Virus record (IMG/VR): IMGVR_UViG_3300009873_000011
Location: 6,831 to 70,830 of that record
Length of the DNA stretch: 64,000 nucleotides
DNA from: a virus
Taxonomy: Duplodnaviria > Caudoviricetes
Direction: 5' to 3' (one strand)
Part shown: positions 1 to 34,540 of the stretch, piece after piece
Layout: each line of letters opens with the position of its first letter
Numbering within the stretch: the stretch's first letter is position 1
The notes under the pieces: generated by a model
What the model saw: only the letters and a program-made list of their open reading frames with translations
Databases searched by the model: none
What the model was told of the DNA's origin: nothing
Translations under genes and position numbers: made by a program

Positions 1-97
1 CTCTTGCGAAAGGTGTTTAAGGGGTAATGGAGCTGACCTTTTACCTCCTGGGTGCCTTCCTGTTCCTCTGGATCGTAGACAAGGTAGTGGAGAAGAA

Positions 98-2185: not shown

Positions 2186-2214
2186 TTGACAAAACCCTAA
2201 ACCCATCCTATCTT
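2186..2214 (+). promoter_or_regulatory. sigma70-type promoter of the tRNA array
   Basis: TTGACA-17 nt-TATCTT just upstream of the first tRNA. Confidence 0.75.
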
Positions 2215-2249: not shown

Positions 2250-2324
2250 GGGAGAGTAGTTCAACGGCAAGAATACTCGGCTCCAACCCGAGTGATCAGG
2301 GTTCGAATCCTTGCTCTCCCGCCA
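2250..2324 (+). tRNA. trnW: tRNA-Trp(CCA)
   Basis: Cloverleaf; CTCGG-CTCCAAC-CCGAG; encoded CCA. Confidence 0.92.
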
Positions 2325-2510
2325 TTTCAACGGGGCTTTAGCCCTTTGAGACGTTCCACCTGGAGCCTAACGGGCCAGGGACTTTTTGTCCCTCCCAAGT
2401 AAGGGCTGGCAGAAACTGGGGGCAAGGAAAAGGTGCAATGCCTTTCATTCCTCCCCGGTTTTGTAGAGTGTTGGTCCTTTAAACGGGGAACCTTTAGGTC
2501 CCCCGTTTCA
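2325..2510 (+). ncRNA. unassigned structured spacer RNA
   Basis: Several nested hairpins, no ORF, lies between tRNAs. Confidence 0.4.
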
Positions 2511-2511
2511 T

Positions 2512-2601
2512 GGGGAGGTGACGGAATGGTTCAACGTGCCGGTCTGTAAAACCGCAGCCGGGCTTAGTCCCGTGGTGGTTCGAATCCACCCCTCCCCACC
2601 A
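2512..2601 (+). tRNA. trnY: tRNA-Tyr(GTA)
   Basis: Loop CTGTAAA, long variable arm, TTCGAAT, CCA. Confidence 0.92.
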
Positions 2602-2605
2602 TTTC

Positions 2606-2681
2606 GCGGATCTAGTGTTCAACGGCAGCACATCAGTCTTCCAAACTAATAGTACGGGTTCGACTCCCGTGATCCGCTCCA
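2606..2681 (+). tRNA. trnG: tRNA-Gly(TCC)
   Basis: GCGGATC/GATCCGC, U73, loop CTTCCAA. Confidence 0.9.
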
Positions 2682-2683
2682 AC

Positions 2684-2759
2684 CCCTCCATAGTTCAAAT
2701 GGCAAGAATCCTGGCTCTTAACCAGTGAGATCGAGGTTCGACTCCTCGTGGGGGGACCA
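2684..2759 (+). tRNA. trnK: tRNA-Lys(CTT)
   Basis: Loop CTCTTAA; cloverleaf; CCA. Confidence 0.92.
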
Positions 2760-3107
2760 ATGAGCACAAACAGTAGAGCTTATACAAATGCGTATCAGAA
2801 AAGGCATTATGCTGCTAACAAGGCAAAGTATATTGCTAAGGCTGATCGCTGGAAAAAGCGGAAGCGTGGATGGCTAGCTGGTCTAAAAGAGGGAAAACCC
2901 TGTGTGGACTGTGAGATCATATACCCAGCATACGTTTTGGACTGGGACCACGCGCGGGGTGAGAAACGGTTCCTTATAAGTCGCGCTATTGCCGCGGGAA
3001 AATCATACGAAGACATACAAAGCGAGCTGGTCAAGTGTGATTTGGTTTGTGCAAACTGTCATCGTGTACGGACGCATAATCGCCGCACTAGTTTAAAAGT
3101 AGAATAA
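2760..3107 (+). CDS. HNH endonuclease
   Basis: CVDC, LDWDH, CDLVCANCHR; ATG directly after tRNA CCA. Confidence 0.85.
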   Translation: MSTNSRAYTNAYQKRHYAANKAKYIAKADRWKKRKRGWLAGLKEGKPCVDCEIIYPAYVLDWDHARGEKRFLISRAIAAGKSYEDIQSELVKCDLVCANCHRVRTHNRRTSLKVE

Positions 3108-3155
3108 GTCCTTGGTAAGGACTGGGAAACGGAGCGTTACCGTTGTGCGGCTCCA
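3082..3155 (+). tRNA. trnT: atypical tRNA-Thr(GGT)
   Basis: GCCGCAC/GTGCGGC-T-CCA; AGTCC-TTGGTAA-GGACT; AACGG-AGCGTTA-CCGTT. Confidence 0.8.
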
Positions 3156-3210
3156 GAAAGCAGGGTAGGGTTGGATGTCAAAGAACCCGTAAATAGAGCC
3201 CTGCTTCTAC

Positions 3211-3287
3211 ACCCGGGTAGCCCAATTGGCAGAGGCAATAGGTCGAGAGCCTATACAGTGAGGGTTCGAGTCCCTCCCCTGGTACCA
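3211..3287 (+). tRNA. trnL: tRNA-Leu(GAG), short variable arm
   Basis: ATAGG-TCGAGAG-CCTAT; Leu-like D-loop; A73; 5-nt variable region. Confidence 0.75.
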
Positions 3288-3357
3288 CCCAAGCGCGACG
3301 GAGTTGGTGGGTCTAAACCACTCGTGGTAGCGCACCACGTTAAAAAATGCGCTTTAT

Positions 3358-3459
3358 GGGGGTGTGGCGAAACTGGCAAACGCGGAGGGCTTAAACCCCT
3401 CTCAACGCAGCTGGCTCAAAACCAGCCGATTCAGGGTTCGACTCCCTGCACCCCCACCA
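3358..3459 (+). tRNA. trnL: tRNA-Leu(TAA)
   Basis: GAGGG-CTTAAAC-CCCTC; long variable arm; CCA. Confidence 0.9.
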
Positions 3460-3464
3460 TCTAC

Positions 3465-3541
3465 ACCACCCTGACGGAACTGGCATACGTACATGGCTTA
3501 GAACCATGGTTTTGGGGGTTCGACTCCCCCGGGTGGTACCA
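3465..3541 (+). tRNA. trnL: tRNA-Leu(TAG), short variable arm
   Basis: CATGG-CTTAGAA-CCATG; 5-nt variable region; A73. Confidence 0.85.
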
Positions 3542-3543
3542 CT

Positions 3544-3619
3544 GGATCAGGATGCTGTCGGTCATGGCAGGCACGTTGTCAGCGTGTTGAAGAGGGTTCG
3601 ACTCCCTTCTGGTCCGCCA
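3544..3619 (+). tRNA. trnD: tRNA-Asp(GTC)
   Basis: GCACG-TTGTCAG-CGTGT; G73; irregular D-arm. Confidence 0.85.
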
Positions 3620-3632
3620 AGCTGTACAGTTA

Positions 3633-3755
3633 GGCAGAGAGATGCTGGACGAATCCAGCAAAGGAAGAACGGTTTGGGGGTGTAGCCGACGAGCTGCACC
3701 TAGCCCCAGGTGGGAACCCTAGTAATCCTGATGGACTAAAGTAAGTCACTCTGCT
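3633..3755 (+). ncRNA. unassigned multi-helix RNA
   Basis: Closing GCAGAG/CTCTGC helix enclosing 3-4 hairpins. Confidence 0.4.
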
Positions 3756-3762
3756 GGTTTTC

Positions 3763-3838
3763 GGGGGACAAGTGTTACTTGGCCGCACACTAGCTTTGGG
3801 CGCTAGTGGTCAGGGTTCAAATCCCTGGTCCCCCACCA
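3763..3838 (+). tRNA. trnP: tRNA-Pro(TGG)
   Basis: CTAGC-TTTGGGC-GCTAG; CCA. Confidence 0.88.
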
Positions 3839-3844
3839 CCCTTC

Positions 3845-3918
3845 GGGGACATAGGCTAAAGGTAGGCCACTTGGTTCTCAGCCAAACAGTCCGGGTTCGA
3901 GCCCCGGTGTCCCTACCA
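3845..3918 (+). tRNA. trnE: tRNA-Glu(CTC)
   Basis: TTGG-TTCTCAG-CCAA; cloverleaf; CCA. Confidence 0.88.
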
Positions 3919-3923
3919 CTTTC

Positions 3924-3997
3924 GGGTTCCGAGTAGGACGGGAATACGACTGGTTTGCACCCAGTAAGACGGGGTTCGACTCCCCGGGGATCCACCA
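3924..3997 (+). tRNA. trnA: tRNA-Ala(TGC)
   Basis: Loop TTTGCAC; G3.U70 identity pair. Confidence 0.9.
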
Positions 3998-4002
3998 TTT
4001 GA

Positions 4003-4076
4003 TGCGGGGAAACCAGGGGTTACCTTAGGCTCATAACCTACAGGGTGTTGAGGTTCGAATCCTCCCTCCGCTACCA
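4003..4076 (+). tRNA. trnM: tRNA-Met/fMet(CAT)
   Basis: Loop CTCATAA; 1:72 mismatch (initiator-like); degenerate D-arm. Confidence 0.75.
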
Positions 4077-4162
4077 ACTAGGAGAAAGCTCTGTGCATGG
4101 GGCCTCTCCCTCGTACGGGACTCCACGGAGGGTGGGAGCCCTCTGCCCGTCCGGGTTATTTT

Positions 4163-4237
4163 GGACCGCTAGTGAAACGGTTATCACACCTGGTTTACAC
4201 CCAGTTATTCAAGGTTCGAATCCTTGGTGGTCCACCA
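4163..4237 (+). tRNA. trnV: tRNA-Val(TAC)
   Basis: CTGG-TTTACAC-CCAG; CCA. Confidence 0.92.
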
Positions 4238-4242
4238 TCTTT

Positions 4243-4317
4243 GGTGAGCGTGAGGTAATGGAAGCCTAGCAGGTTGTGGCCCTGCCAGAGCGGGTTCGAA
4301 TCCCGTCGCTTACCCCA
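4243..4317 (+). tRNA. trnH: tRNA-His(GTG)
   Basis: Loop TTGTGGC; encoded G-1 opposite C73. Confidence 0.92.
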
Positions 4318-4322
4318 TAACC

Positions 4323-4384
4323 ATGAAGTGCGAGTTAGTCTGTTCTAACTGTCATCGTCTTCGTGGTGAAGTTAGGCGTAAAAT
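4323..4384 (+). pseudogene. HNH endonuclease C-terminal remnant
   Basis: Translates MKCELVCSNCHRLRGEVRRK, matching the KCxLxCxNCH end of the intact HNHs. Confidence 0.7.
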
Positions 4385-4458
4385 TGGGTTGTCGTCCAAC
4401 GGCAAGACATCGCGCTCTGACCGCGAGAATCAAGGTTCAAATCCTTGCAACCCAGCCA
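4385..4458 (+). tRNA. trnQ: tRNA-Gln(CTG)
   Basis: TCGCG-CTCTGAC-CGCGA; U1-A72, G73. Confidence 0.92.
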
Positions 4459-4460
4459 AA

Positions 4461-4536
4461 GCAGAGAGAGCTAGTGTGGTCATAGCACGGGTCTGAAAAG
4501 CCCGCCAACGTGGTTCGATCCCACGTCTCTGCACCA
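4461..4536 (+). tRNA. trnF: tRNA-Phe(GAA)
   Basis: CGGGT-CTGAAAA-GCCCG; CCA. Confidence 0.9.
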
Positions 4537-4539
4537 AAC

Positions 4540-4833
4540 ATGACACGAAATGCTAAGAAGGTTGCGGAGTGGCGGCGCAGAACAAAGGCCAAATTGGTAG
4601 CTTTGGCTGGGGGAAAGTGTCAGCGTTGTGGCTATAGCCGCTGTTTAGCTGCTCTGCAATTTCACCATAGAGACCCCAGCACGAAAGCATTTGCCATAAG
4701 CCGTAAAGGGCATACAAGACGTTTTAGTCTCCTAGTTGAGGAGATACAGAAGTGTGACTTGCTCTGCGCTAATTGTCATGCAGAGGTCGGGTATATTCAG
4801 GAGTCGCCCAATGGTAGGGCAACAAGCTGTTAA
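4540..4833 (+). CDS. HNH endonuclease
   Basis: GGKCQRCG, LQFHHRDP, KCDLLCANCH. Confidence 0.85.
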   Translation: MTRNAKKVAEWRRRTKAKLVALAGGKCQRCGYSRCLAALQFHHRDPSTKAFAISRKGHTRRFSLLVEEIQKCDLLCANCHAEVGYIQESPNGRATSC

Positions 4834-4872
4834 CTTGTCCCGGTGCAGGTTCGAGTCCTGCCTCCTGAGCCA
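4797..4872 (+). tRNA. trnN: tRNA-Asn(GTT)
   Basis: TCAGGAG/CTCCTGA-G-CCA; loop CTGTTAA. Confidence 0.92.
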
Positions 4873-5175
4873 ATGCCCTACAAAGACTACAAGAAACAAA
4901 TGAATCTCTATATGAAGCGGAGATGGAAGCTTCGTCGAGAGATTGCAGTAGCTTTTCTTGGTGGTAAGTGTGTCAACTGTGGGACCGTAGAAGCTCTGGA
5001 ATTTGATCACATTGACCCGACCACTAAAATTAAAACCATTGCTAAGTTTTCTTCTGCTAGCGAACTTAAGTTTTGGGCGGAGGTTAAGAAGTGCCAGTTG
5101 TTGTGTGAAAGTTGCCATAACGAAAAAACTAAGTTAGACTTTTCTCTTGGGACTGTAGCTCAATGGGTAGAGTAG
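4873..5175 (+). CDS. HNH endonuclease
   Basis: GGKCVNCG, LEFDHIDP, KCQLLCESCH. Confidence 0.85.
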   Translation: MPYKDYKKQMNLYMKRRWKLRREIAVAFLGGKCVNCGTVEALEFDHIDPTTKIKTIAKFSSASELKFWAEVKKCQLLCESCHNEKTKLDFSLGTVAQWVE

Positions 5176-5224
5176 CGGCCTTTTAAGCCGAGTGATGAGA
5201 GTTCAAGCCTCTCCGGTCCCACCA
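5149..5224 (+). tRNA. trnK: tRNA-Lys(TTT)
   Basis: CGGC-CTTTTAA-GCCG; CCA. Confidence 0.9.
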
Positions 5225-5226
5225 AT

Positions 5227-5300
5227 GCGAGCGTCGTCTAATGGAAAGACTGGCCCCTGATTAGGGTCAAACGTGGGTTCAACTCCTACCGCTCGTACCA
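5227..5300 (+). tRNA. trnI: tRNA-Ile(GAT)
   Basis: GGCCC-CTGATTA-GGGTC; unusual T at position 37. Confidence 0.8.
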
Positions 5301-5305
5301 CTTCC

Positions 5306-5380
5306 GCTAGCAAGGTCTTGAAGGTAAGACGCTCGCTTCGTAAGCGAGAGGAACGGGTTCGATCCCCGTAGCTAGCTCCA
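5306..5380 (+). tRNA. trnT: tRNA-Thr(CGT)
   Basis: CTCGC-TTCGTAA-GCGAG; canonical T-loop; U73. Confidence 0.88.
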
Positions 5381-5389
5381 GAACACTCC

Positions 5390-5464
5390 GGACCTATGGT
5401 GAAATGGAAATCACTACGCGCTTCGAACGCGTCATTCGGGGTTCGAGTCCTCGTGGGTCCGCCA
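5390..5464 (+). tRNA. trnR: tRNA-Arg(TCG)
   Basis: ACGCG-CTTCGAA-CGCGT; CCA. Confidence 0.9.
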
Positions 5465-5467
5465 AAC

Positions 5468-5537
5468 GCCGGGAGAGCAAGGCTAAGGAGGGTTTTGTAA
5501 ACCTTCCCGCAGGGAGCGTTACCCTGTCCCGGCTCCA
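5468..5537 (+). tRNA. trnT: atypical tRNA-Thr(TGT)
   Basis: GCCGGGA/TCCCGGC-T-CCA; loop TTTGTAA; CAGGG-AGCGTTA-CCCTG; shortened D-arm; 70 nt. Confidence 0.75.
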
Positions 5538-5539
5538 AC

Positions 5540-5616
5540 GGGGGAGTCGTCTAGCGGTCAAGGACACCAGCCTTTCAAGCTGGCTAACGTGGGTTCGAAT
5601 CCCATCTCCCCTACCA
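5540..5616 (+). tRNA. trnE: tRNA-Glu(TTC)
   Basis: CCAGC-CTTTCAA-GCTGG; CCA. Confidence 0.92.
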
Positions 5617-5654
5617 GGTTCGAGTCCTCGACGTCAGATTGTCCTCAGCACAAA

Positions 5655-5744
5655 GGGAGTAGGGAGGAAGGTTTCTCAAGGCGGCTTATACCCGCTTGGC
5701 CAGATTAGCCCTAGAACTTGGTTCGAGTCCAAGTGCTCCCACCA
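5655..5744 (+). tRNA. trnI: tRNA with TAT anticodon (Ile AUA) and long variable arm
   Basis: GGGAGTA/TGCTCCC-A-CCA; GGCGG-CTTATAC-CCGCT; variable hairpin GGC..GCC. Confidence 0.75.
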
Positions 5745-5753
5745 AAACCTTTC

Positions 5754-5829
5754 GGCCCCGTAGTTCAATGGAAAGAACGCCACTCTTCTAAAGTGGATGC
5801 TGGGTGTTCGAGTCGCCCCGGGGTCACCA
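5754..5829 (+). tRNA. trnR: tRNA-Arg(TCT)
   Basis: CCACT-CTTCTAA-AGTGG; CCA. Confidence 0.92.
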
Positions 5830-5834
5830 CTTTT

Positions 5835-5919
5835 GGAGAGCATCCGAACGGTCAGGAAGCAGTTTGCTAAACTGCCACAGGCATAGCCTCAGTGGGTTCG
5901 ACTCCCGCGCTCTCCGCCA
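5835..5919 (+). tRNA. trnS: tRNA-Ser(GCT)
   Basis: GCAGT-TTGCTAA-ACTGC; long variable arm; G73. Confidence 0.92.
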
Positions 5920-6204
5920 ATGCCCACCAAAAACAAACAATTGCTTAGGGAACTTCAACGACGACACCGCCAACAGAAAAAAGCCAAGCTACGCGCGTAT
6001 TTTCAAGAACACCCGTGTATTGACTGCGGGGAAGCCGATTTTAGGTGTCTTGGCTTCGATCACGTCCGCGGCACTAAGTTCAAGAATGTCTCTGTGATGA
6101 TGCGCTCCGGCTATTCTTGGAAAGCGGTTCAAGCTGAGATGGCTAAGTGCGAAGTCCGTTGCGCGAATTGTCACCGTAAGAAAACATACGGCCCTATCGT
6201 CTAA
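5920..6204 (+). CDS. HNH endonuclease
   Basis: HPCIDCG, LGFDHVRG, KCEVRCANCHR. Confidence 0.85.
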   Translation: MPTKNKQLLRELQRRHRQQKKAKLRAYFQEHPCIDCGEADFRCLGFDHVRGTKFKNVSVMMRSGYSWKAVQAEMAKCEVRCANCHRKKTYGPIV

Positions 6205-6264
6205 TGGAAAAGGCGAGGCCCTCCTAAGGCCTAGATCGGGGTTCGACTCCCTGTAGGGCTACCA
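6190..6264 (+). tRNA. trnR: tRNA-Arg(CCT)
   Basis: AGGCC-CTCCTAA-GGCCT; CCA. Confidence 0.9.
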
Positions 6265-6271
6265 CATTTCT

Positions 6272-6360
6272 GGAAGGCACCCGAATGGTTAGGAACTAGT
6301 CTTGAAAACTAGGGTGGGGGAGATCCCCCCTACAGGGTTCGATTCCTTGGCCTTCCGCCA
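6272..6360 (+). tRNA. trnS: tRNA-Ser(TGA)
   Basis: CTAGT-CTTGAAA-ACTAG; long variable arm; G73. Confidence 0.92.
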
Positions 6361-6365
6361 AAAAC

Positions 6366-6716
6366 ATGGAAAAGAAACTTCTCTTCAGTCTTACCGCTAA
6401 GGACTTCGATATTCAGACCTTTTGTACTGGAGGTAACGGTGGACAGCACCGAAACGCCAAGCAAAATGGAGTGCGGATAATTCATCGTGCTTCTGGGGCT
6501 CGGGCAGAACACCGAGATGGACGGGATCAGGCGAAGAACAGGGAAGCAGCGTTCAAGAAACTGGTAGAGACTCCGACCTTTAAGGCATGGCACAAAATGG
6601 AGGTAGCTCGCAGGTGCGGCTTGGTGGCTGAAGCCGAGCGAGCGACAGAGGAAGCAATGCAGCCTAAAAACCTTAAGATAGAGGTTAGGGACGAGCAGGG
6701 GCGGTGGACGAGTTAG
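6366..6716 (+). CDS. GGQ peptidyl-tRNA hydrolase (ArfB/YaeJ-like ribosome rescue factor)
   Basis: TGGNGGQHRN...VRIIH...RDQAKNRE RF-1 domain motifs. Confidence 0.85.
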   Translation: MEKKLLFSLTAKDFDIQTFCTGGNGGQHRNAKQNGVRIIHRASGARAEHRDGRDQAKNREAAFKKLVETPTFKAWHKMEVARRCGLVAEAERATEEAMQPKNLKIEVRDEQGRWTS

Positions 6717-7172
6717 ATGAAATGGAAAACTCTAAGCGGGGAGCAGATCCCCGACATAGCTGAGTTCATAAAGAAGGCATCCGCAGATGGACAGGAGGTC
6801 CACATTGGTACCGACTCCCTTCAGACCGGACGGTACACCCAATTCGTTACAGTGGTTGCTGTGCTCAACCCACCTAAGGGAGGAAGAGCCGCCTACACGA
6901 GGGAGATTGTTCCCCGTATTAGCTCTCTACGAGAACGCTTGCTGCGTGAGGTGTGGAAAAGCGTTGAATTGGGGATGGCAGTGGCGGGGGAGTGTAACGG
7001 GGATTTGACGATCCACGTAGATGCGAACCCCTCAGAGAAGTATATGAGTAGTAAGTATGTGCAGGAGTTAGTCGGCTTGGTAGTTGGCCAGGGCTTTAAA
7101 GCCCTCATCAAGCCGGAGAGCTGGTGCGCCACCCACGCGGCGGACTGGACTGTACGCAACCTTAACAAGTAA
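6717..7172 (+). CDS. YkuK/DUF458-like RNase H-fold protein
   Basis: HIGTDS, FVTVVAV, LLREVWKS, IHVDAN, AAD. Confidence 0.75.
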   Translation: MKWKTLSGEQIPDIAEFIKKASADGQEVHIGTDSLQTGRYTQFVTVVAVLNPPKGGRAAYTREIVPRISSLRERLLREVWKSVELGMAVAGECNGDLTIHVDANPSEKYMSSKYVQELVGLVVGQGFKALIKPESWCATHAADWTVRNLNK

Positions 7173-7247
7173 GAGCGGGTAGGCAAGAGGCTAAGCCCCA
7201 TGGCTGCAACCCATGTATCGAGGGTTCAAATCCCTCCCCGCTCTCCA
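7173..7247 (+). tRNA. trnC: tRNA-Cys(GCA)
   Basis: CATGG-CTGCAAC-CCATG; U73. Confidence 0.92.
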
Positions 7248-7252
7248 TCCAC

Positions 7253-7326
7253 TGGGGATTAGGCTCAAGGCGAGCCGGGAGGCTTTGACCCTCCGGAGCA
7301 GGGTTCGATTCCCTGGTCCCCAGCCA
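7253..7326 (+). tRNA. trnQ: tRNA-Gln(TTG)
   Basis: GGAGG-CTTTGAC-CCTCC; G73. Confidence 0.92.
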
Positions 7327-31339: not shown

Positions 31340-31723
31340 TTACGTTATTGTTGTGTCCAGGGTGGGGCTGAATGGGACCCCGACTGTAAGACCCGAGTTA
31401 ACATAGACATAAACCTTCCCGTCTCCGGTAAACTCAAGAATGGTTGCACTCGCTGAGTCAGCCACCCACTGGCCGGAAGCATCCACATGTGCCCCCCTGG
31501 CTAGGGCGCTCTTCTCCAGGTCATCCCCATAACGGGAGATGTAGAAACCCCCAGCGGAGAAGTTCTGCCCCTTCCCGGAAGAGATGTTTAGGGGTTCGAT
31601 GCGGTTAGTGCTCTCCGTCTTCCCCTCTAGGCGGTCGAGCCTTTCGGAGAACTTCTGGAAAGCCAGATTCACCGCCGCTTTGGTGAACTCTCCCTCTACC
31701 TGAACCCTGCTCCCGGCTCCCAT
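31340..31723 (-). CDS. hypothetical virion protein
   Basis: GGAGG RBS; follows tail genes. Confidence 0.55.
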   Translation of the reverse strand: MGAGSRVQVEGEFTKAAVNLAFQKFSERLDRLEGKTESTNRIEPLNISSGKGQNFSAGGFYISRYGDDLEKSALARGAHVDASGQWVADSASATILEFTGDGKVYVYVNSGLTVGVPFSPTLDTTIT

Positions 31724-32151
31724 TAGGTGCCTCCGCCCTTACGCCAAGCCAACCGATCTTGCATGACCCAAGTCTTGAGCCGATGATGATTAGAACAACG
31801 TACTACACACTTTGAGGCTTCAGCACGGATGGCGGCTAAGGAACCACGCTCGCACACATTGTGCGTCTTATCACCGGAGGCATGATCAAACTCCAAGAAT
31901 AGGGGATAGTCTTCACTACAATCTACGCATTTGCCACCTAGTTCTTGTAGCACTAATAGGCGTCTAGCAGTTCGTCGCCACCGAGCAACTTGATTACGGA
32001 AGGCAGTGTCCATCTTGTGCCTAGCTCTCCAACGTTCCTTTTGTCTGCGTACCTTATCGGGATTTGCTTCGTTCCACCTACGTCGGTCAGCCTGATTCTT
32101 TTCCCAGTGTTTCAGGTAGCTTCGTCGGCGTATCTCCTGACGAGTCAACAT
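31723..32151 (-). CDS. HNH endonuclease
   Basis: GGKCVDC, LEFDHASG, KCVVRCSNHH; start 1 nt after upstream stop. Confidence 0.8.
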   Translation of the reverse strand: MLTRQEIRRRSYLKHWEKNQADRRRWNEANPDKVRRQKERWRARHKMDTAFRNQVARWRRTARRLLVLQELGGKCVDCSEDYPLFLEFDHASGDKTHNVCERGSLAAIRAEASKCVVRCSNHHRLKTWVMQDRLAWRKGGGT

Positions 32152-32152
32152 T

Positions 32153-34540
32153 TTACGTCCCGCCGCCTTTTCGGAGGTACGCAGCGTATCCCGCCTGGCT
32201 GAACGGGGTGAGCGCCTGATAGCTACTCTGTGTCTGCCAAGGCTTAGCGAAGAGCACCGTGTCTTCTCCATAGAACCTGAAGGGTTCCGCGCTGTCTAGC
32301 TTGAAGCCCCAGACGTTCCCAAGCCTTGGGAGCAACTCCAAGAAGACCTTCTTCCTGACCCCGTTCGTGTTTGGCAGGGCGAGGGAGTAGATGTCATCCG
32401 TCCCATCCACGTTGATGGTAAGGGTAACCGGCGCGTTGCTACGAAGTCCCCAGTAGGAGTCCTTGATGTGGTACGGTCCCCCCTGGCCAAGACTCTGCGG
32501 TGGGTGCTCCCAATGCTTGGTGTCCTCCTCATCTTCCCTGAAGAGCAGGAGCGCCTGGTAGAGCTTCGGCTTCAAGTTTGGTTCCTCGTTCCATGAGAAG
32601 TCCAGGCTGATGCTTCTTGCATAGTAGTCGGAAAGAGAGAAGGACTTGGTACGCCTTCCTGTGATGTCCCCCTGGGTGCCGGTAGTCAAAGCGGTCCCCG
32701 CGGTTAGCTCCGAGTTGTAATAAGGTGTGATCGTGATGTCCACCCCGGCTGGGTCGAAGTCGAGGATAAGGACCCCCCACTCCTTGTGTGTCAACGGTGC
32801 TCCTGCGTCTATAGCCCCGCTTCTAAACTGTACCCCAAACGCCTCATCCTCATTCTCAATCAGATCATCAAAGACCTTGATGAGCTGGGAGTTGTACTCC
32901 CCCAGGATGATCTGGTTCCAAGGTAGCCCCTCGTTGAAGTACGCCGCTCCGTACTTGTTCTGTGTCCATTCCAGCCAGCGCTTCCCAAGCACGTCATACA
33001 CCAGATGGAAGGTCCCACCCGTTGTGGCTCCCTTGTAGAAGAAGTGCAGCTCCTTGTTGGTGGCCTCCATCCGGATCTCATCCGAACGAGAGTAGTCTAT
33101 CGCTTCCAGGTCTCCACGGTTTTCCCCCCTGAAGATCGGCTTGAGGGTCTCGTCTATGATGTTGACCGGCGGGTTCGGCTGGCAGTCGGTTATGTAGATC
33201 CCATCCTTGCTGCAGAGAAACACGATGTTGGGAGCGACAGCAAAAGCATACCGTCCCGTTGCACCAATTCCGATGGGCACCTCTCTTGGAGTGAACGCAG
33301 GTTGAGCCTCCGGCCCGGCAAAGTCCATAGCGTAAAGACGCTTGTCACTGAAGACGTAGGGATTTGCACCAAAGATAAAGCCATTGAGTAGATCCTCCCC
33401 GGGGTCGCTGACTGCATTCACATCATACGCAGCGTCGTGTCTTGCTAGGTCGGTGAGCTTGTTCCAGTAGATGTGATTCTTCCTAACCGGGTCGCCTACC
33501 CAGAAGACATACTTACCCAGGAAGGGGCCAAAGGCGTAAGCGAACTTCTGCCCCGTGCTGGCTGCGCCCGCGGTGTCTATGGTGGTGAACACCTCCACAG
33601 AGTCGGTGTCAAGTGCTTCGTTGAGGGCTACTGTTGCATCGGCGGCAGTGTCATCATAGGTGATGCTTCCCCCTGAGTTGGTAGAAGCGGTAGTGCCCAG
33701 GAGTCTCCACGTGTTGGAGAGGGAGCCCCCAAGTCTCCAAACCCTGAAGTAGTCGAAGTTCCCATAAGTGTTAGTGTCTGTCCAGGTGGCTCGGCAGCCC
33801 TGGTTGGACAACACTATTGAGTTGCTCACCGCACTTGGCGGACCTTGGAAACCCGTGGTGGAATCATATCCACTGATCCGGTAGTAGTAAGTCCCAGTAA
33901 GGCCGGTGCTATTTGTTGCCAGGGTGGGCGCTGCTGCCGGCTTAGGAATCCCCAGACGCTTAGCGTTGAAGGTGGGCACCGTAGCCAGGTTGTAGTACCC
34001 CGTGTTGATGGCTAAGGTGGTGTGCGGGCTGTCGGTGTTCAGGTCCTTCAACTTCAGGTACCACTGACCGTCTATCAGGATGATGTGTAGGCCTAGCGGG
34101 CTGGAAGTCCGCACCACACTTAGACCCGTTGGGTCTAGCGCTGCGTAGGTGCTGTACCCCGTTTGCTTCCGCACCACGGCTCCGTTCAGAAAAACCCTGT
34201 ATCCCGAGTCAGAGTAACCCATCGGCAGCGGGGTGCTGCCGTGGATGGAGAGGTAACCCTCCACATCCGAGTCGGCGTCTACCGTGATCTGTCCGATGTA
34301 GCGGATAGCCCTTAGGGGTCCAGTGCTCCACCCACTAGGGTAAGCGTAGGTATGCCCATCCAGGTCTTCCTGCTCAAGCAGGATCGGCCCGGTGGATGGC
34401 CTGCCTTCGATTACCCCCTCGACATTCGCCCGGAGATTCAGGGCTCGGGTGAGCTGCCCCGGCTGGAGTTGCTCGGGAGGGTTAGTAAGGTTCAACCCAC
34501 CTAGGAAGAACTTCAGATTGAGGTTTCTGTAGTCCGCCAT
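32153..34540 (-). CDS. tail stabilisation / nozzle protein (P22 gp10 / T7 gp12-like)
   Basis: FLGGLN..NP, ALN...GVIEGRP, beta-propeller-like middle; podoviral synteny. Confidence 0.65.
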   Translation of the reverse strand: MADYRNLNLKFFLGGLNLTNPPEQLQPGQLTRALNLRANVEGVIEGRPSTGPILLEQEDLDGHTYAYPSGWSTGPLRAIRYIGQITVDADSDVEGYLSIHGSTPLPMGYSDSGYRVFLNGAVVRKQTGYSTYAALDPTGLSVVRTSSPLGLHIILIDGQWYLKLKDLNTDSPHTTLAINTGYYNLATVPTFNAKRLGIPKPAAAPTLATNSTGLTGTYYYRISGYDSTTGFQGPPSAVSNSIVLSNQGCRATWTDTNTYGNFDYFRVWRLGGSLSNTWRLLGTTASTNSGGSITYDDTAADATVALNEALDTDSVEVFTTIDTAGAASTGQKFAYAFGPFLGKYVFWVGDPVRKNHIYWNKLTDLARHDAAYDVNAVSDPGEDLLNGFIFGANPYVFSDKRLYAMDFAGPEAQPAFTPREVPIGIGATGRYAFAVAPNIVFLCSKDGIYITDCQPNPPVNIIDETLKPIFRGENRGDLEAIDYSRSDEIRMEATNKELHFFYKGATTGGTFHLVYDVLGKRWLEWTQNKYGAAYFNEGLPWNQIILGEYNSQLIKVFDDLIENEDEAFGVQFRSGAIDAGAPLTHKEWGVLILDFDPAGVDITITPYYNSELTAGTALTTGTQGDITGRRTKSFSLSDYYARSISLDFSWNEEPNLKPKLYQALLLFREDEEDTKHWEHPPQSLGQGGPYHIKDSYWGLRSNAPVTLTINVDGTDDIYSLALPNTNGVRKKVFLELLPRLGNVWGFKLDSAEPFRFYGEDTVLFAKPWQTQSSYQALTPFSQAGYAAYLRKGGGT

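Follow-up and report, generated by a model that had tools for sequence, protein, structure and literature searches.

HNH nuclease genes fitted between the tRNA genes of a phage array and their possible expression from tRNA-processed messages

How is a gene expressed if it has no promoter, ribosome-binding site, or stop codon of its own? This question is raised by four small open reading frames (ORFs), here termed HNH1 to HNH4, in the transfer RNA (tRNA) array of a tailed virus (Duplodnaviria; Caudoviricetes). The stretch analyzed, referred to throughout as the window, comprises 64,000 nucleotides (nt) and corresponds to bases 6831-70830 of the IMG/VR record IMGVR_UViG_3300009873_000011, which is 70,830 base pairs long and rated complete. 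Near-identical DNA is present in metagenomes of activated sludge, bioreactors, wastewater, and freshwater. The tRNA array occupies bases 2250-7326 of the window, with all genes on the same strand. We tentatively propose, rating the idea a little below an even chance, that the HNH genes are expressed from leaderless or near-leaderless messenger RNAs (mRNAs) generated by tRNA processing.

As far as can be read from the DNA, each insert is a bare reading frame that extends from an ATG to the last sense codon. An earlier note on this stretch reported that the ATG follows the tRNA CCA end without a spacer at 2760, 4873, and 5920 and after 3 nt at 4540, and this spacing was confirmed at every coordinate. 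It was equally correct that every HNH ORF ends within the downstream tRNA, with the four stops located in tRNA-Thr, tRNA-Asn, tRNA-Lys, and tRNA-Arg (Table 1). The frames cross the junction as sense codons and reach their stops 15-37 nt inside the tRNA that follows; incomplete U or UA stops of the mitochondrial type were not encountered at the HNH junctions. In agreement with the mitochondrial arrangement, the ORFs are directly flanked by same-strand tRNAs (5' spacers of 0-3 nt, 3' overlaps) and a single promoter-like site lies upstream. The CCA is encoded in all 27 of the array tRNAs that were checked, and directly adjacent tRNAs of the window array are separated by 2-9 nt. HNH2 and HNH3 share a reading frame, with one TAA (4831-4833) and 13 sense codons from the 3' half of tRNA-Asn between them; this pair might be subject to reinitiation or readthrough.

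The type II tRNA-Ser(gct) that precedes HNH4 (5835-5919) was evaluated separately. It matches the Rfam tRNA-Sec model, which belongs to the same clan, with 34 bits (E-value 6e-4, under the gathering score). Its minimum free energy (MFE) fold is a perfect cloverleaf with a long variable arm that ends in G-CCA (z -2.8). Aligned, syntenic tRNA-Ser(gct) genes were also found in relatives.

The ORFs had been described as HNH nucleases in the earlier note, and both family matches and conserved motifs uphold this assignment. All four match PHROG HNH families (3106, 2255, 4234) with E-values of 1e-18 to 1e-27; the matches to Pfam PF01844 are sub-threshold, with 15.7-21.1 bits versus a cutoff of 21.4. 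The proteins are about 33% identical to one another and their N-terminal methionine columns align. The motifs CxxC...KCxxxCxNCH and DH are kept, all catalytic and zinc motifs being intact in the four copies, and K-C-x3-C-x2-C-H is invariant, together with CxxC and D/H-H, across these copies and 15 homologues. For the beta-beta-alpha-metal fold that defines the HNH superfamily, an AlphaFold2 model of HNH2 (predicted local distance difference test score of 84) was compared with the Protein Data Bank (PDB) using Foldseek; the top matches were all HNH proteins (T4 endonuclease VII, Cap5, Gme HNH, Cas9 HNH), though weak ones with a best E-value of 0.04. A sequence-profile search of the PDB with the HNH alignment gave nothing significant. 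On the basis of these predictions, HNH1 to HNH4 are small free-standing HNH (endonuclease VII-like) nuclease genes. Their family, context, and polymorphism suggest that they are of the selfish, 'homing' type. An exact look-up in a collection of 15 billion proteins returned no entry for any of HNH1 to HNH4, whichever start was assumed, and a near-identical HNH2 protein was not found, the best match being 70% identical.

Patterns of substitution indicate that the HNH genes are under purifying selection. Contigs of close strains from Logan were mapped onto the array and only the best-supported differences were listed; the contig from run X2 carries 15 differences over 4326-4873, 11 of which are among those listed. 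All ten listed substitutions within HNH2 are synonymous in the frame of the ATG at 4540, compared with one of ten and none of ten in the other frames. Similar constraint is evident in an independent clade of nine IMG/VR loci that encode a 114-amino-acid HNH, in which pairwise ratios of nonsynonymous to synonymous substitution (dN/dS) are 0.02-0.13. These genes start 2-4 nt past a tRNA 3' end in seven of the nine loci, namely those with an upstream tRNA, and stop at nt 8-10 of tRNA-Arg(tct) in all nine. Genes maintained by purifying selection must be translated somehow.

The sequences at the starts provide little for conventional translation initiation. Ordinary genes of this phage mostly have a clear AGGAG or GGAGG at normal spacing. 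The reference starts for pairing with the anti-Shine-Dalgarno (anti-SD) sequence, 13 of which belong to correctly placed SD-led genes, have a mean duplex energy of -7.3 kcal/mol. The corresponding values are +1.2 kcal/mol for HNH2, -2.2 for HNH3, +0.7 for HNH4, and -1.5 for an RF-1-domain gene of the same array, which bears out the earlier observation that no SD precedes the ORFs at 4873 and 5920. HNH1 has a GGGGGG at -11 to -6 and reaches -9.3 kcal/mol only through this run, which is part of the 3' strand of the acceptor stem. HNH2 to HNH4 have the features of leaderless genes, i.e. an AUG start and no SD, and HNH1 is ambiguous given the acceptor-strand G-run. All six of the starts that abut tRNAs are AUG. 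The first 36 nt of each HNH ORF are A/C-rich and weakly folded, with MFE values of 0 to -4.4 kcal/mol.

An alternative is that the true starts are in-frame GTGs inside the tRNAs (2748, 4510, 4843), which would be served by SD-like tRNA sequences. The earlier note had named SD-led starts within the tRNAs as a finding that would overturn its interpretation, and no properly spaced SD was found at any of the three GTGs: 4510 and 4843 have no SD at all and the GAGG upstream of 2748, which speaks for such a start, lies 12 nt away. Upstream, no stop interrupts the frames as far as 2694, 4486, and 4834; the HNH4 frame, however, has no upstream start codon. Annotators did choose a GTG at -12, inside tRNA-Pro, for gp97 of the cluster M phage LilhomieP (MK937612), yet the family N-terminus MKxCxxC begins in that gene at an ATG 3 nt past tRNA-Pro. 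Starting at the GTGs of the window would add residues that are absent from every homologue, in contrast to the aligned methionine columns of the paralogues and to several of the shortest HNH2 homologues, which begin within 1-4 residues of the ATG position. Such starts would also sit inside stable tRNA helices. We rejected in-tRNA GTG starts and consider them very improbable.

That a tRNA 3' end can replace an SD in these phages is best supported, though indirectly, by the RF-1-domain gene (6366-6716), a neighbour that is not selfish. This ORF matches Pfam RF-1 with an E-value of 8.1e-13 and contains the GGQ motif (GGNGGQ). In the window and in three further arrays (L002, L011, L013), it is located 5, 6, 2, and 4 nt, respectively, after four different tRNAs and has no SD. 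Where the gene lies away from a tRNA, it is preceded by a clear SD (GAGGAG, AAGGAGG) in about ten sequence-distinct contexts. These non-adjacent contexts represent 16 loci, several of them duplicates, and a few other loci score weakly; in total, there are about 30 loci besides the four arrays.

Comparison with relatives shows that the HNH genes are insertions whose presence varies between strains, the presence/absence polymorphism characteristic of homing genes. Three syntenic arrays (L002, L003, L032) were found via the RF-1-domain gene. At the site of the 276-nt HNH3, all three have tRNA-Asn, a single T, and tRNA-Lys(ttt). HNH content also differs among contigs of near-identical strains from four other studies. 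At precisely the position where a fifth HNH survives as a remnant (4326/4327), the strains from runs X2 and X7 are longer by about 269 letters, which would give an intact gene starting 5 nt after tRNA-His; these strains probably keep the whole fifth HNH. In the strain from run X9, 4318-4843 is replaced by 340 other letters and HNH3 is kept. The remnant itself (4323-4384) retains the ATG and a C-terminal KCELVCSNCH... segment, is internally deleted, and belongs to an ORF that runs on to 4496. It is the positional orthologue of an HNH after tRNA-His in L032, where the copy has an SD-bearing 13-nt spacer. Exact-pattern scans of viral and metagenome contigs recovered no further junction of tRNA-His with the fifth HNH. 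Two joints in strain contigs (2775 to 3024 and 4873 to 5354) have short sides of 25-27 nt and were not used. Similarity to the X2, X7, and X9 strains breaks at 4844-4845, within the conserved GGTTCGA T-loop box of tRNA-Asn. This position suggests that modules may be exchanged by recombination within T-arms.

Junctions of this kind are not confined to the window. We collected 170 unique HNH relatives from IMG/VR, 56 of which have a same-strand tRNA no more than 200 nt downstream. Among these 56 ORFs, 33 read into the downstream tRNA and a further eight end no more than 12 nt from it; after clustering at 60% identity, such an overlap is seen in 15 of 26 clusters. Spacing in related arrays, which the earlier note expected to be random if its interpretation were wrong, is not random: start offsets after the upstream tRNA fall into two groups, one at 0-3 nt (8 of 40, including the four of the window) and a second at 7-25 nt. 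Some, though not all, spacers of the second group carry an SD, for example GGAG in two spacers of L032. The survey of other phage arrays proposed in the earlier note did recover flush HNH genes. One locus (L274) contains two CCA-ATG HNHs of the same family, the second of which follows tRNA-Asp, and another (L262, 4889-5383) contains an HNH of another family (phrog_99) that is flush with the CCA and ends 2 nt before tRNA-Gln. One of the L274 ORFs reads through a whole tRNA-Asn and the other has CANDH in place of CANCH.

Homologues of HNH4 are also found in the arrays of cluster C and M mycobacteriophages, Streptomyces phages, and the Sphingobium phage Lacusarx. An HNH of the Bxz1-type phage ET08 reads through the whole of tRNA-Trp, and the junction in Lacusarx consists of CCA, GAGGTTT, and ATG. 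The homologues in these two phages are unannotated (KY629563, 69.6-70.1 kb, for Lacusarx; NC_013650, 90.5-91.0 kb, for ET08).

Two broader rules were considered and rejected. An unbiased scan of IMG/VR for a T-arm followed by CCA and directly by ATG gave a sample of 84 sites, of which seven open ORFs of at least 60 codons in the ATG frame, compared with six and five in the other frames. The long flush ORFs included two nuclease genes, the first of the L274 HNHs and the phrog_99 gene of L262. Since the ATG frame performs no better than the others, CCA-ATG alone is mostly chance and is not a general signal. In the window array, three of the four CCA-ATG sites begin undamaged HNH ORFs whose alignment with the family starts at residue 1, and the window junctions are therefore not chance. 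The second rule concerned stops. Sixteen HNH ORFs, entering six tRNA species, have their stop at precisely nt 8-10 of the tRNA that follows; the bases conserved there, U8-A9-G10, are then read as TAG or TAA. An adaptive stop rule was rejected because these amount to about 8 of about 25 independent junctions, near the one-in-three expectation for random frames, and to none of the four in the window.

In L002, L003, and L032, some candidate non-HNH ORFs overlap the tRNA that follows by 10-53 nt; these are longest ATG frames, and most lack homology support. Most array ORFs in these three loci start 12-16 nt past the upstream tRNA. Tight packing is, from the arrays compared here, a general property of such loci.

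These comparisons bear on a second alternative, in which the flush geometry has no expression logic and the HNHs are poorly expressed or unexpressed passengers heading to decay, like the remnant at 4323. With array spacers of just 1-9 nt, an insert can leave both tRNAs intact only by being flush; likewise, reading into the tRNA needs no design because every frame that enters one meets a stop within about 40 nt. The alternative also accommodates the 1-nt spacers of relatives, the decayed copy, the strain-level loss or replacement, and the chance origin of most CCA-ATG sites elsewhere. It is less easily reconciled with the ten synonymous changes in HNH2, the low dN/dS of an independent clade of the same geometry, and the catalytic and zinc motifs that are intact in all four copies. 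In addition, a conserved gene, that for the RF-1-domain protein, takes the same near-flush, SD-less position in four arrays. We consider it improbable that the genes are mere passengers.

Table 1. Positions of the array features that form the HNH junctions, with comparable ORFs of other loci (aa, amino acids).
Feature	Position	Strand	Details
Sigma-70-like promoter candidate	2186..2214	+	TTGACA, 17 nt, TATCTT; 10/12 consensus matches only; just before first tRNA
tRNA-Lys(ctt)	2684..2759	+	CCA encoded; HNH1 ATG directly after last base
HNH1, 115 aa	2760..3107	+	ATG flush with CCA; phrog_3106, 1.6e-24; last 8 codons and TAA (3105-3107) encoded by tRNA-Thr(ggt), 26-nt overlap
tRNA-Thr(ggt)	3082..3155	+	Found by ARAGORN; equivalent gene in relatives
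tRNA-His(gtg)	4244..4317	+	5 nt before ATG of decayed fifth HNH
Remnant of fifth HNH	4323..4384	+	ATG and C-terminal KCELVCSNCHRLRG... part; adjoins tRNA-Gln(ctg) at 4385
tRNA-Phe(gaa)	4461..4536	+	CCA encoded; followed by 3-nt AAC and HNH2 ATG
HNH2, 97 aa	4540..4833	+	No SD; phrog_2255, 5.9e-26; last 12 codons and TAA (4831-4833) within tRNA-Asn, stop in anticodon loop
tRNA-Asn(gtt)	4797..4872	+	Holds HNH2 stop; CCA followed directly by HNH3 ATG
HNH3, 100 aa	4873..5175	+	Flush with CCA; phrog_4234, 4.6e-27; stop TAG (5173-5175) in D-arm region of tRNA-Lys(ttt), 27-nt overlap
tRNA-Lys(ttt)	5149..5224	+	Found by ARAGORN and Rfam
tRNA-Ser(gct), type II	5835..5919	+	Missed by ARAGORN; CCA followed directly by HNH4 ATG
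HNH4, 94 aa	5920..6204	+	ATG flush with CCA, no SD; phrog_3106, 4e-22; last 4 codons and TAA (6202-6204) within tRNA-Arg(cct), 15-nt overlap
tRNA-Arg(cct)	6190..6264	+	Found by ARAGORN and Rfam
tRNA-Ser(tga)	6272..6360	+	5 nt before RF-1-domain gene
RF-1 (GGQ) domain protein, 116 aa	6366..6716	+	Starts 5 nt (AAAAC) after CCA; no SD
RNaseH_like (PF04308) ORF	6717..7172	+	ATG directly after TAG of RF-1-domain gene; stop flush with tRNA-Cys at 7173
HNHs of L274	462-815; 876 to ~1215	reverse	Coordinates in that orientation
HNH ORFs stopping at tRNA nt 8-10			L130, L157, L166, L171, L174, L178-L180, L183, L184
Further HNH ORFs stopping at tRNA nt 8-10			L186, L187, L191, L192, L200, L204
Candidate non-HNH overlapping ORFs of L002	7801-8133
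Candidate non-HNH overlapping ORFs of L003	2084-2287; 3836-4078; 8069-8569
Candidate non-HNH overlapping ORF of L032	2885-3136

Transcription signals within the array are sparse. A promoter scan found no promoter-like site before any HNH ATG, and the possibility that private promoters start transcripts at these codons was rejected. Promoter matches on the + strand were detected at 5003 and 5112 inside HNH3 and at 6440 inside the RF-1-domain gene. No terminator-like site was found on the + strand within the array except for the acceptor stem of tRNA-Val. The promoter-like sequence at 2186-2214 is the only candidate start for a polycistronic transcript of the tRNA and HNH genes.

A possible route to expression through tRNA processing can be outlined from these features. 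HNH genes have moved into the 1-9-nt spacers of an operon of about 30 phage tRNA genes, and a single precursor covering the whole array would be made from the promoter-like site. An endonuclease would then free the 3' end of the upstream tRNA and so place the mRNA 5' end at the AUG or 3-5 nt before it. Ribosomes would translate the resulting message as leaderless or near-leaderless, as in mitochondrial tRNA punctuation, and would terminate at the first in-frame stop within the downstream pre-tRNA. Because that stop is inside the next pre-tRNA, every transcript would be subject to competition between HNH translation and maturation by RNase P. Once RNase P had cut a molecule, it would lack a stop, and ribosomes on it would have to be rescued. 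This geometry would spare both flanking tRNAs and would tie expression of the nucleases to transcription and processing of the tRNA operon. We infer from this scheme messages that are leaderless after cleavage at the CCA and non-stop after RNase P, an idea of processing-gated expression that the earlier note had already put forward.

A third alternative shares the selfish HNH inserts and differs in the template. Translation of the genes may take place on the tRNA precursor before it is processed, by routes that need no SD, with processing serving only to destroy the message. These routes comprise loading of 30S or 70S ribosomes on the A/C-rich start before or while the tRNA folds, use of the G-run of HNH1 as an SD, and termination-reinitiation at HNH3. 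Several observations are consistent with this, including the GGGGGG of HNH1 (-11 to -6, -9.3 kcal/mol), the weakly structured start regions, and the frame shared by HNH2 and HNH3, with the HNH2 stop 40 nt before the HNH3 AUG. The usual exonucleolytic maturation of the CCA would, moreover, leave no intact AUG at a 5' end. However, neither HNH2 nor HNH4 is preceded by an SD-like run or by another ORF, and a folded stack of acceptor and T-arm at -1 should clash with the mRNA exit path of the 30S subunit. It is also hard to explain why the SD of the RF-1-domain gene is missing only next to a tRNA unless the tRNA end contributes. Overall, translation from the precursor is possible but seems rather unlikely to us.

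A number of points weigh against expression from tRNA-processed, leaderless messages. Ribosomes of the Escherichia coli type translate leaderless mRNAs poorly. The host of this phage clearly uses SD sites; a host search with a 670-amino-acid protein from the structural region returned only 25%-identity matches to many unrelated phages. In the best-studied bacteria, 3' ends of CCA-encoding tRNAs are formed by a downstream endonucleolytic cut and subsequent 3'-to-5' trimming. Trimming would destroy a flush AUG, and the proposal therefore requires an exact cut after the CCA or the discriminator base. In the closest relative (L032), the HNHs are preceded by ordinary SD-bearing spacers of 13-15 nt, and insertion into 1-2-nt spacers may have produced flush starts as a side effect that is tolerated. 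The spacers of HNH2 (3 nt) and the RF-1-domain gene (5 nt) are not strictly leaderless, and the G-run of HNH1 could act as an SD on unfolded RNA. In addition, the sequencing runs listed as containing the locus include no RNA run.

A role for the RF-1-domain protein in rescuing ribosomes from stop-less HNH messages appears less secure. The earlier note described the gene as 'ArfB-like'. It does encode a real, bare GGQ domain, but the C-terminal 40 residues are about charge-neutral instead of forming the basic tail of ArfB. Its best PDB matches are to domain 3 of RF1, RF2, mtRF1, and PrfH; chains of ArfB or ICT1 are absent from the matches at E-values of 0.01 or below. As this tail is absent and RF-1 genes are known in arrays without such junctions, a link to the HNH ORFs is speculation. 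The most elaborate form of the hypothesis is tRNA punctuation in a bacterial virus, in which HNH and GGQ mRNAs are leaderless, RNase P makes the HNH messages stop-less, the GGQ protein of the array releases their products, and kinetics gate the nuclease. We would regard this complete scheme as a long shot.

The surrounding array has several unusual components. ARAGORN predicts 26 tRNAs, to which Rfam adds a tRNA of 99 nt at 3358-3456 and the type II tRNA at 5834-5916. The 99-nt tRNA (Rfam, 56.7 bits) was missed by ARAGORN. Met(cat)-like, Thr(tgt), and long-arm Ile(tat) genes were recognized by eye only and not by ARAGORN (listed at 4002-4077, 5465-5538, and 5655-5744). The array total is probably 31-32 tRNAs. 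An odd T-loop, AGCGTTA instead of TTCGAAT, occurs in tRNA-Thr(ggt) (3082-3155) and the Thr(tgt)-like gene (5465-5538), neither of which is listed by Rfam at E-values of 0.01 or below; similar Thr genes occur in L032 and L003. The RNaseH-like protein encoded after the RF-1-domain gene was found by exact look-up in only one 1.5-kb contig. A megablast search of the array against GenBank phages gave no match. One more HNH-family ORF is present outside the array (31706-32278, - strand; hidden Markov model E-value 3e-11), among structural genes.

HNH genes in tRNA arrays are already known, and the architecture of their junctions appears to be new. A full-text literature search found no description of flush, SD-less, stop-less tRNA/HNH junctions, of their recurrence, or of the expression model. 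If the proposal is true, tRNA 3' processing that yields leaderless mRNAs in phages would be a new route of bacterial gene expression, with a parallel in organelle punctuation. Such processing would also illustrate how a selfish nuclease can enter an essential RNA operon and do it no harm. A practical consequence is that gene callers miss or mis-start these HNH genes.

Several known systems resemble parts of this locus. The nuclease gene segB of phage T4 lies among phage tRNA genes and is inherited preferentially with the flanking tRNA genes (PMC2330249). Like the HNHs of the window, it is a nuclease gene variably present at a tRNA-cluster locus; SegB, however, is a GIY-YIG enzyme for which homing has been experimentally shown, whereas the window genes are HNH and their homing is putative. 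Reports on tRNA arrays from mycobacteria, mycobacteriophages, other viruses, and cyanobacteria, as far as the portions consulted go, identify HNH as the most widespread coding sequence and an RF-1-domain gene as core in some (PMC5966550, PMC6409571, PMC8421152). In those portions they describe co-occurrence and not the junction architecture seen here, and one of them presents RF-1-domain genes as a general feature of tRNA arrays (PMC5966550). The RF-1-domain protein of the window resembles ArfB and ICT1 as a small stand-alone GGQ-domain protein and differs in having no K/R-rich C-terminal tail.

An architectural parallel is mitochondrial tRNA punctuation, in which reading frames abut tRNAs in a polycistronic transcript and tRNA excision defines the mRNA ends (PMC3790967, PMC8601606). 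Frames butting on tRNAs are common to both systems, and mitochondria combine leaderless mRNAs with GGQ-domain rescue factors. The window, in contrast, belongs to a bacterial virus for which such processing is a proposal, its tRNAs encode the CCA, and its frames run into the next tRNA. Mitochondria also complete partial U or UA stops by polyadenylation, of which the window has none. Leaderless AUG mRNAs are, finally, normal and efficient in some bacteria such as Actinobacteria and Deinococcus (PMC3848588, PMC4007540). Their 5' ends arise from transcription initiation, whereas no promoter of the window is so placed; at the HNH ATGs, RNA cleavage would therefore have to make the 5' end.

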